From: Eledone cirrhosa
Taxonomy: Eukaryota
Length of the DNA stretch: 64,000 bases
NCBI GenBank assembly: GCA_964016885.1
Contig: OZ024755.1
Location: 26,660,001 to 26,724,000 of the forward strand
Direction: 5' to 3'
In this document: positions 5,874-8,205 of the stretch, piece by piece
Layout: every line of letters starts with the position of its first letter
Numbering within the stretch: position 1 is the first letter of the stretch
The notes under the pieces: generated by a model
Seen by the model: the letters and a program-made list of their open reading frames with translations, nothing else
Told to the model about the DNA's origin: nothing
Database searches by the model: none
Made by a program: the position numbers and the translations under genes

Positions 5874-5931
<58 letters not shown>

Positions 5932-6054
5932 GGAGGTGAGTTTTATTGTAGTACAATAAAGCAATGCAGATATCGGATAAGAAGCACTCTACAGTTTGTG
6001 GGACTGGAGTATGCATAATATAAGATCAAAAGATGGTTAAAGGAGTTCTATATA

Positions 6055-6121
6055 TTTTATTATGCGCATTTCAAAAACAAACATCATCAAGCAATAATAT
6101 TTGTGTTTTCATCAGATAAAA
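6055..6121 (-). ncRNA. Minimal type I hammerhead ribozyme (inverted pLTR copy)
   Basis: Reverse complement of 8070-8136. Confidence 0.85.
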
Positions 6122-6823
6122 CAGGAGAACATGATATGAAGGCTAAAAAACACTTGTTGATAGTGCAGTTTTAAATCAACATATGAAAAGTGGTTTTAGA
6201 TTGATGTGTGATATTGGGAAAAATATTTTATTTAGAGAGGGGGGGGGGAAGGATGAGAAGGGAAGGAGATGAGAGGGAGAGATGGGTGATAAAGAGAAAG
6301 AGATAGTTTTTATAACTGAGAGGAGATATATTTTTTATATAGAGGGGTTGAAAACCGTTGGAAGATACTGTATAAATTAAAAATTTTGAAAATTAACGAA
6401 GGGGGGATATGTGCGAGGAAAAAATATTTTATTTAGTTTAGGGAGGGGGGGTGGAAAGGATGAAAAAAAGGGGGAGGAGATGAGAGTGAAGGTGGAGAGG
6501 GAGAGATGGGTGATAGAGAGAAAGAGATAGTTTTTATAACTGAGAAAAAGATATATTGTTTTAATATAGAGAGGTTGGGAACCGTTGGAAGATAATGTAT
6601 AAATTAAAGGAATTTAAAAATTAACGAAGGGAAATTATGTATGAAGATAGAGAGAAAAAAATAATAATTGTGGGTGAATATTCTAACGTCAAAAGAAGAA
6701 ATGTATGTATTGTGGCAATTTCAAAATTAGCAAAGAGAGAAATGTTAAGGTTTATGTGTAGAAGGATTTGAGAAAAATAATGTGAAGTTAAAGTTTGTAT
6801 ATTGAATTCATATGTATTAATAA

Positions 6824-7087
6824 TACAAACTTAAAAGAACTAACACTGCTCTCTCAGAACTCATATGGTCCTTAAAAGACAAAAACATTAAATATAGCAT
6901 CTTTTGGAAAAAGATTTCTTCTGCATCCTCATACTTGAACAGCTCTCTATCTAAAATCTGTAATCTCTGCCTAAATGAAAAATTTACCATTATCTCTAAC
7001 CTAGAATCCATAATAAATAGACGCTCAGATTTGTTTTCTATCTGCCTGCATAAATTCCATAGAACTTTTCACAAAGTATACAGTTAA
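6824..7087 (+). pseudogene. C-terminal 87 aa of a PLE GIY-YIG endonuclease (no start codon, absent from ORF track)
   Basis: YKLKRTNTALSELIWSLKDKNIKYSIFWKKISSASSY...SKICNLCLNEKFTII...IINRRSDLFSICLHK...*; fits the CxLCLxEK...LNxRxE...CxH end of PLE ORFs. Confidence 0.85.
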
Positions 7088-8069
7088 TATTCAATTCTTT
7101 ATCAATTTAGAATCTTTTCTCAAAGGCACATATACATACACCTCTTTAAAATATACCCATCTACCTTACTTTAAAGGGCATTATACACTCTATAATACTC
7201 GTTTACTCATTACCCTCATTCTATCTTCTCGTAAAACAATAACATTTGTTTTTGACATTTTGAATATTCATCCGCAATCATTATTATTTTTTCTCTCTAT
7301 CATAAATCTTTTTAATCTCAATTTCATCCTTAATTTATTATTATTTTTTTCTCCCCATCAACGAACTCATTATTAATACATATGAATTCAATATACAAAC
7401 TTTAACTTCACATTATTTTTCTCAAATCCTTCTACACATAAACCTTAACATTTCTCTCTTTGCTAATTTTGAAATTGCCACAATACATACATTTCTTCTT
7501 TTGACGTTAGAATATTCACCCACAATTATTATTTTTTTCTCTCTATCTTCATACATAATTTCCCTTCGTTAATTTTTAAATTCCTTTAATTTATACATTA
7601 TCTTCCAACGGTTCCCAACCTCTCTATATTAAAACAATATATCTTTTTCTCAGTTATAAAAACTATCTCTTTCTCTCTATCACCCATCTCTCCCTCTCCA
7701 CCTTCACTCTCATCTCCTCCCCCTTTTTTTCATCCTTTCCACCCCCCCTCCCTAAACTAAATAAAATATTTTTTCCTCGCACATATCCCCCCTTCGTTAA
7801 TTTTCAAAATTTTTAATTTATACAGTATCTTCCAACGGTTTTCAACCCCTCTATATAAAAAATATATCTCCTCTCAGTTATAAAAACTATCTCTTTCTCT
7901 TTATCACCCATCTCTCCCTCTCATCTCCTTCCCTTCTCATCCTTCCCCCCCCTCTCTAAATAAAATATTTTTCCCAATATCACACATCAATCTAAAACCA
8001 CTTTTCATATGTTGATTTAAAACTGCACTATCAACAAGTGTTTTTTAGCCTTCATATCATGTTCTCCTG

Positions 8070-8136
8070 TTTTATCTGATGAAAACACAAATATTATTGC
8101 TTGATGATGTTTGTTTTTGAAATGCGCATAATAAAA
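8070..8136 (+). ncRNA. Minimal type I hammerhead ribozyme
   Basis: ttttat|CTGATGA|aaacacaaata...tgtttgttttt|GAAA|t-GCGC-a|TA|ataaaa; intact core with palindromic tetraloop on a short stem III. Confidence 0.88.
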
Positions 8137-8168
8137 TATATGGAACTCCTTTAACCATCTTTTGATCT

Positions 8169-8205
<37 letters not shown>

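Follow-up and report, generated by a model that had tools for sequence, protein, structure and literature searches.

Penelope-like elements (PLEs) of the Hydra clade are described as carrying a DKT and an RWK motif, a CxCx5C linker and the CxxC and CxH signatures, as lacking CCHH, and as having (TA)n targets (PMC8557442). Particularly, Penelope-13_HM bears an inverted 5' copy with hammerheads on both strands, and Hydra-1_Obim is an octopus element that belongs to a family other than the one described here (PMC8557442, supplement). A tail at one end only has already been described for PLEs (PMC8557442; PMC3846280). Opposite-strand hammerhead pairs lying 100-700 bp apart are reported in Schistosoma, and the activity of PLE hammerheads is given as low (PMC4209133). 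In an Anolis element, two reverse transcription (RT) starts bound the tail, both strands are cut and extended, a protein dimer is predicted and the RNA substrate is uncleaved (PMC11167929). The formation of PLE inverted repeats and tails is named as an unsolved question in the text of PMC8557442, and the relevant part of PMC3846280 leaves undecided whether the template is sense or antisense.

Here we describe an insertion of this type in Eledone cirrhosa, in a 64-kb stretch of DNA (hereafter, the window). On the basis of motif matches, the locus is assigned to a Hydra-clade Penelope-like retrotransposon, of which it represents a non-coding copy that is truncated at the 5' end and placed in a (TA)n run, and the motif-based assignment makes it a member of a new family within a known clade. 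The insertion spans positions 5927/5929 to 8176 with (TA)n on each side: the final AT of the left target microsatellite (5878-5928) is common to the element, and the right one (8174-8202) overlaps the element end by 3 nt. From left to right, it comprises a tail of 86-88 nt (5927-6014, minus strand) located between two outer ends, A and B; a B-ended left arm (6015-6824, minus strand; 3' UTR/pLTR) that runs uninterrupted into the tail; the last 87 codons of a Hydra-type RT-endonuclease (RT-EN) ORF (6824-7087, plus strand); an unpaired part of the 3' UTR that forms the loop of the palindrome (7088-7368, plus strand); and a right arm (7369-8176, plus strand; 3' UTR/pLTR) that stops at end A and contains degenerate internal repeats spaced ~225-250 bp. 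The inversion junction (6822-6824) shows a 3-nt microhomology, AAT, the chance of at least 3 nt of junction microhomology being ~6.6%.

The left arm in reverse complement aligns with the right arm over 810 columns with three differences, namely one substitution and a 2-nt poly-G indel, and the tail (5929-6014) is the sequence found after the pLTR end in tandem copies. These two results confirm the anatomy proposed in the first-pass annotation, i.e. a ~2.2-kb insertion forming a palindrome with ~810-bp arms, an inverted pLTR, an 86-bp tail and (TA)n on both sides. The insertion had also been considered recent, and this is borne out by the single substitution over 783 positions between the arms and by the loop: a query against the 3.0-Gb assembly, in which the window lies on contig C15, retrieved 1,870 candidates, and of 40 that were scored, six match the 545-bp loop with 100% identity. 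Short-read runs from other individuals or species, matching at most 64% of sampled words, confirm the architecture of the family rather than the junction of this locus. Immediately to the right of the insertion, positions 8210-8875 are occupied by a SINE-like repeat that is very abundant and is present there in three or four copies.

Lacking a start codon, the 87-aa frame is the C-terminal end of the family ORF, and its alignment with a homologous RT-EN protein shows 44% identity (E 4e-16). At locus L040 this ORF is intact, as an 800-aa open frame with YRDDG and a C-terminal EN, and has 26 homologs; the repeat unit, taken from a five-unit array, is 3,656 bp long. The frame had been read from the sequence as a GIY-YIG C-terminus. 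Its place at the end of the RT-EN ORF and its similarity to the homolog stand, but the GIY and YIG motifs themselves are absent from the 87-aa piece. Pfam yields no match for this frame (6824-7087) and none for the full family ORF, and a GIY-YIG Pfam match is obtained for 1 of 12 aligned members.

Like other Hydra-clade PLEs, such as Penelope-13_HM and Hydra-1_Obim (PMC8557442), the family combines DKT, a CxCx5C linker (CNCRIKNKC), CxxC and CxH around a conserved E and N (CNLC, NEK, INRR, CLH, all but the linker being within the 87 codons), insertion in (TA)n across the family copies and a hammerhead near the 3' end with an endonuclease devoid of CCHH, in which the one Cys between NLIY and TYFG is not conserved in homologs. 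It departs from them in the length of its unit, 3.66 kb compared with generally less than 3 kb, which is a descriptive rather than a diagnostic trait of the clade, and in having RWT at the position of RWK, where the homologs show RWK, RWR, RWE, RWF or RNK. In addition, the tail (86-90 nt) is longer than the 30-40 nt described for PLEs, and the hammerhead, with its 16-bp helix II and GCGC loop, is unlike all those in File S2 of the same source (PMC8557442). The L040 protein contains, at residues ~590-660 and before the CxCx5C linker, an insert of ~65-70 aa rich in N, P, T and S, which is absent from 10 of 11 aligned homologs and recalls the N-rich inserts of rotifer Penelopes (PMC3846280).

The array (L021-L023, C6:38068882-38089521) has A and B as its outer ends and is composed of five units in tandem and one inverted arm. 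All five units carry one frameshift, and units 2 and 4 share variants against units 1, 3 and 5. A programmed frameshift was considered and rejected: the other seven loci with that region lack the break, which is therefore a private mutation. Beside the array lies a second Hydra-type family (L021:1594-3183 and 4627-4706), which has a hammerhead of its own and an open frame of 529 aa.

The ends of the family were counted over the whole genome as exact 30-mers of the element end followed by TA, reversed controls giving zero. End A on (TA)n gave 4,105 exact matches with a pattern that misses subfamily variants, and the two forms of end B gave 2,541 and 7,745; the second family has 4,633 A-type and 4,102 B-type ends. 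The architecture recurs thousands of times in the genome and twice more in the window. A 434-bp palindrome of the same family (31113-31546) lies in (TA)n with end A on the left and end B on the right, its arms stopping at or near the run-off point described below and bearing two hammerheads (31213, minus strand; 31358, plus strand), and an inverted insertion of a related family (approximately 48813-49240) has a ~95-nt tail on one side, a hammerhead with the loop TATATA and the same first tail hairpin. Since the genome has more than 14,000 exact-match family ends next to (TA)n, and since two opposite hammerheads in an inverted Hydra copy have already been published, the single locus is an ordinary copy, without sign of a special role.

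Two other readings of the family copies were discarded. The common 430-bp forms do not behave as a self-propagating non-autonomous element (MITE or retrozyme), having neither a common junction nor head-to-tail arrays; their junctions vary from copy to copy, so they arise anew. Apparent "tail-only" arms are artefacts that arise in aligning a subfamily which carries a 2-nt insertion. At L110 (~5035) and L122 (~5442), the tail junction contains a SINE-like repeat immediately beyond end A, with a short duplication on its flanks. As to the rest of the window, a 347-aa open frame (62367-63407, minus strand) resembles a Tc1/mariner transposase, and the fragments at 44-778, 14230-14574 and 52313-53198 resemble LINE reverse transcriptase and endonuclease genes; no host exon was recognised by eye among the 103 open frames of the window.

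The two outer ends lie downstream of the predicted hammerhead cut, end A by 46 nt and end B by 132-136 nt, with a separation of ~88 nt, and they are used in pairs. Of 15 inverted insertions selected for their similarity, each has end A on one side and end B on the other. Along C1:1-67.3 Mb, with 47 A and 137 B ends among the first matches on one contig, outward pairs within 12.5 kb are A/B in 35 of 41 cases, B/B in 5 and A/A in 1, where 20.3 A/B pairs are expected (p=1.8e-6); 10 of the 47 A ends and 92 of the 137 B ends are without a listed partner. When the first 40 A ends are followed, the far end is B in 35 and A in 1, three have no inverted partner and in one the sequence ends. The second family behaves alike (100 A and 81 B ends; 29 of 34 pairs A/B, 3 A/A and 2 B/B; p=1.9e-5), and the exceptions, A/A or B/B, amount to 6/41 in the first family and 5/34 in the second. 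All 10 sequences compared, which come from four families, retain the first hairpin of the tail that separates both ends (UACUCCAG...CUGUNGAGUG), two of its pairs showing changes on both sides; a second hairpin, present in single folds, was not recovered in the consensus fold. What is added here over the known one-sided tail are these counts and the longer tail. Among the openly accessible papers covered, we found none that reports, for Hydra elements, counts of A/B pairs, a run-off with a cap G or a 90-nt tail with structure.

The arms of one insertion are also closely related to each other. The arm-to-arm distance is 0.8%, compared with 3.6% to the arms of other insertions (39 insertions, p=5e-8), and at this locus the arms are 1/783 apart with the nearest other arm at 1.4%. 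The arms of one insertion thus share private variants, pointing to one source; gene conversion, or two RNAs from the same source, could also account for the similarity. Many insertions, including this locus, have unequal arms and a unique loop, and some long insertions, such as L095, have breakpoints that are equal on both arms. Among 40 A-anchored loci, 14 A arms with a partner stop at the run-off point or close to it, and in no case is the partner long; mixed run-off/read-through pairs were found at L090 and L038; the A-anchored counts are used here, a hand-tallied arm-length table (15/0/1/17, Fisher) having been set aside. In a survey of junction microhomology, 9 of 29 junctions were resolved, of which 4 are perfect palindromes with a CATATG overlap (L075, L084 and L102 being among them).

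A further recurrent boundary lies within the arms. Arms that start exactly at the base equivalent to window position 8007, without the templated C before it, number at least 4,402 genome-wide, and this family run-off point is located at 8007 (plus strand) in the right arm of the locus and at 6184 (minus strand) in the left one. In a hand count of the first 100, the preceding base is G in 47, T in 37 and A in 16, with G expected in ~20; G still precedes 28 of 81 once those explained by the other arm are dropped (p=0.001). At loci whose sequence was retrieved, 20 junctions have added bases, and the preceding base is G in 11 of them, two of these G's being probably templated by a subfamily variant. 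An added G is expected from the copying of a cap, as established for LINEs, and the TTCATA at the run-off point fits an initiator consensus. The one-base run-off, often accompanied by an extra G, suggests that this base is the start of a capped RNA. In this regard, the pLTR contains the transcription start in Penelope and Chlamys-3 (PMC8557442). Alternatively, the run-off base, which lies in a CATATG palindrome beside a hairpin, could be a pause or annealing site. The same inverted joint, 6184 to 8007 with an added C or G, is present in contigs of the separate run X1, and raw reads of runs X16 and X18 contain end A followed by (TA)n as well as an opposite-strand joint. Short direct duplications (ATATGTTG repeated) occur at the run-off point, e.g. 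at C1:37395309 and C1:123807506, as if the cDNA end had re-primed a few bases back.

With respect to the ribozymes, a descriptor search found cores (CUGAUGA...GAAA-UGCGCA-UA) at 8076 (plus strand) and 6115 (minus strand), with predicted cuts after 8130 and 6061, respectively, and three more elsewhere in the window. Two oppositely oriented type I hammerhead motifs, as annotated at first, are thereby located at 8061-8145 (plus strand) and 6046-6130 (minus strand), and covariation across families agrees with them. In 13 sequences of the present and related families the core is invariant, 95% of cells are paired and 15 of 21 pairs change on both sides, against 33-55% of paired cells in slid controls, the relatedness of the sequences being a factor that inflates the shuffle control. 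Loop III is self-complementary in 13 of 13 (GCGC, ATAT or ATGT), with 100% of cells paired and both pairs changing on both sides, and a 1x1 mismatch in helix II after 3 bp is conserved. The Rfam hammerhead check gave no match in 5400-8700 up to E=1, so that the support for the motif comes from descriptor, fold and covariation; single-sequence folds are no better than shuffles (z -1.2 and -0.9). Two Rfam matches to mir-297 fall on TA repeats and were discarded as chance matches. Hammerhead-like motifs of other families, with loops CG, CGCA, CTAG, GAAC or GGAC, are present at L030, L037, L067, L112, L028, L068 and others.

The motifs had been called minimal, a label that does not apply: the present one has a helix I of 8 bp, a helix II of 16 bp with a C-U mismatch and a helix III of 2 bp with a 4-nt GCGC loop, whereas min-HHR has a helix II of 7-8 bp and no helix III or loop 3 beyond the core. 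As far as the account in PMC4209133 goes, it fits the "small palindromic helix III" variant. It resembles PLE hammerheads in being type I with a weak helix III and a palindromic loop, for which a dimer model exists, and differs from them and from the strict minimal form in its much longer helix II and conserved 1x1 mismatch (PMC4209133).

That the palindromic loop III is suited to dimers, another early proposal, agrees with the covariation and with a cofold of -12.5 kcal/mol, there being no monomer fold. Because the copies of the locus are on opposite strands, no dimer of the two ribozymes can form within one transcript. It is predicted that the hammerhead needs a dimer and stayed mostly uncut in the RNAs from which the copies were made. 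As both outer ends lie downstream of an intact ribozyme, the templates were uncut at the hammerhead. Ends placed exactly at the predicted cut yield 103 matches, or ~75 after removing slippage variants (hand counts), and ends two bases to either side yield ~26 and ~44 with patterns that are not strictly equal; the excess at the cut site is weak, not exceeding 2-3 times the neighbouring counts, and the upstream site, with 4,402, outnumbers it by far. This fits the Anolis element Poseidon (PAc), for which cleavage is reported as dispensable and no reads end at the cut (PMC11167929), and also the low activity given for PLE hammerheads (PMC4209133). It had also been suggested that read-through would mask the ribozyme in a long hairpin. 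This holds for external read-through, in which transcription invariably reaches the sense ribozyme once its complement has been made (duplex -107 vs hammerhead -11 kcal/mol), but not for outward RNAs from the candidate starts at 8007 (plus strand) and 6184 (minus strand), which would be unmasked.

Taking these observations into account, we consider it probable that priming takes place twice on an uncleaved sense RNA, from one nicked strand at A and from the other at B, and that the two cDNAs are joined head to head. According to this model, the endonuclease would nick both strands of the microsatellite, and each 3' end would pair with 2-3 nt of RNA (UAU at A, AU or UA at B) flanking the structured tail and prime reverse transcription. 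Both cDNAs would copy the same pLTR copy, and their 3' ends would be joined by microhomology or a few added bases and then filled in. If the first pLTR of a capped RNA is primed, run-off at the start of that RNA would produce the common ~430-bp palindromes, and priming at a downstream pLTR of a tandem transcript would lead to long arms such as those of this locus. Double priming on uncleaved sense RNA is favoured over antisense self-priming because of the A/B pairing, the shared private variants, the run-off at 8007 and the scarcity of cut-site ends.

In LINE-1 twin priming, both target strands prime on the RNA and an inverted 5' part is joined by microhomology; the position of the second start is random, and each cDNA copies a different part of the RNA. 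In the present family, in contrast, each start has a fixed position and one region is the template for both cDNAs. PAc is similar in that two RT starts bound the tail, both strands are nicked and extended, the target is AT-rich and the RNA is uncleaved; it belongs to another clade, and its starts lie inside the ORF, ~30-40 nt apart, whereas those described here lie upstream of the ORF, ~88 nt apart (PMC11167929). As far as covered here, that report does not state a paired use of the two starts for inverted copies (PMC11167929). A more specific version of double priming, which we put forward only tentatively, would be a one-step, double-headed complex in which the ~90-nt tail sets two RTs at fixed starts on uncleaved capped RNA. 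In such a complex the hammerhead would serve mainly to pair two template copies rather than as a cutter, and abortive run-off at the first pLTR would give rise to thousands of hairpin-forming mini-palindromes.

Two RNAs of the same source, held together possibly via the palindromic AUGCGCAU segment of the hammerhead and providing one arm each, are an unlikely origin of the inversions. The self-complementary loop across families and the cofold of -12.5 kcal/mol are in line with such a pair, which would also spare the second RT from displacing the first cDNA. Loop palindromy, however, is equally expected from plain dimeric cleavage, and a symmetric dimer alone leaves the asymmetry of A with B unexplained. 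Moreover, catalytic mutants of the Anolis hammerhead are reported to have left insertion unchanged (PMC11167929), pairing mutants being a separate matter.

Fold-back self-priming on an antisense template, as proposed for rotifer Penelopes (PMC3846280), we regard as improbable. Both the perfect palindromes with CATATG overlap and the equal breakpoints of L095 would follow from it, but it predicts the same outer end on both arms, where ~85% of pairs are A/B, and it is at odds with the unequal arms and unique loops of many insertions, this locus included, and with the extra G on the sense 5' side. Rolling-circle copying of a circular monomer produced by hammerhead cleavage and ligation, proposed in PMC4209133, is very improbable as a general route. 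The frameshift common to the five units of the C6 array and the small excess of ends at the cut site would suit it, and a circular template may account for a minority of long tandem insertions; nevertheless, the units of that array vary in a pattern (2 and 4 against 1, 3 and 5) that is unexpected from one circle, the dominant run-off, 124 nt upstream of the cut, requires linear uncleaved RNA, and the A/B pairing is left unexplained. Finally, that the inverted arm of this locus is an assembly or amplification artefact is scarcely credible: the four read runs, from other individuals or species, contain no read across its 6822-6824 junction, but the arms are non-identical, have different outer ends, each a defined site of the family, share a 3-nt microhomology and surround a loop that is unique, and the architecture recurs with varied junctions and in independent short-read data.

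The family comprises thousands of natural insertion products in which two starts can be read, together with a candidate RNA start and a tail whose structure is conserved, and exact predictions for an in vitro assay can be drawn from them. As regards the organism, the genome of E. cirrhosa carries thousands of near-perfect inverted repeats, whose read-through would yield long double-stranded RNA.
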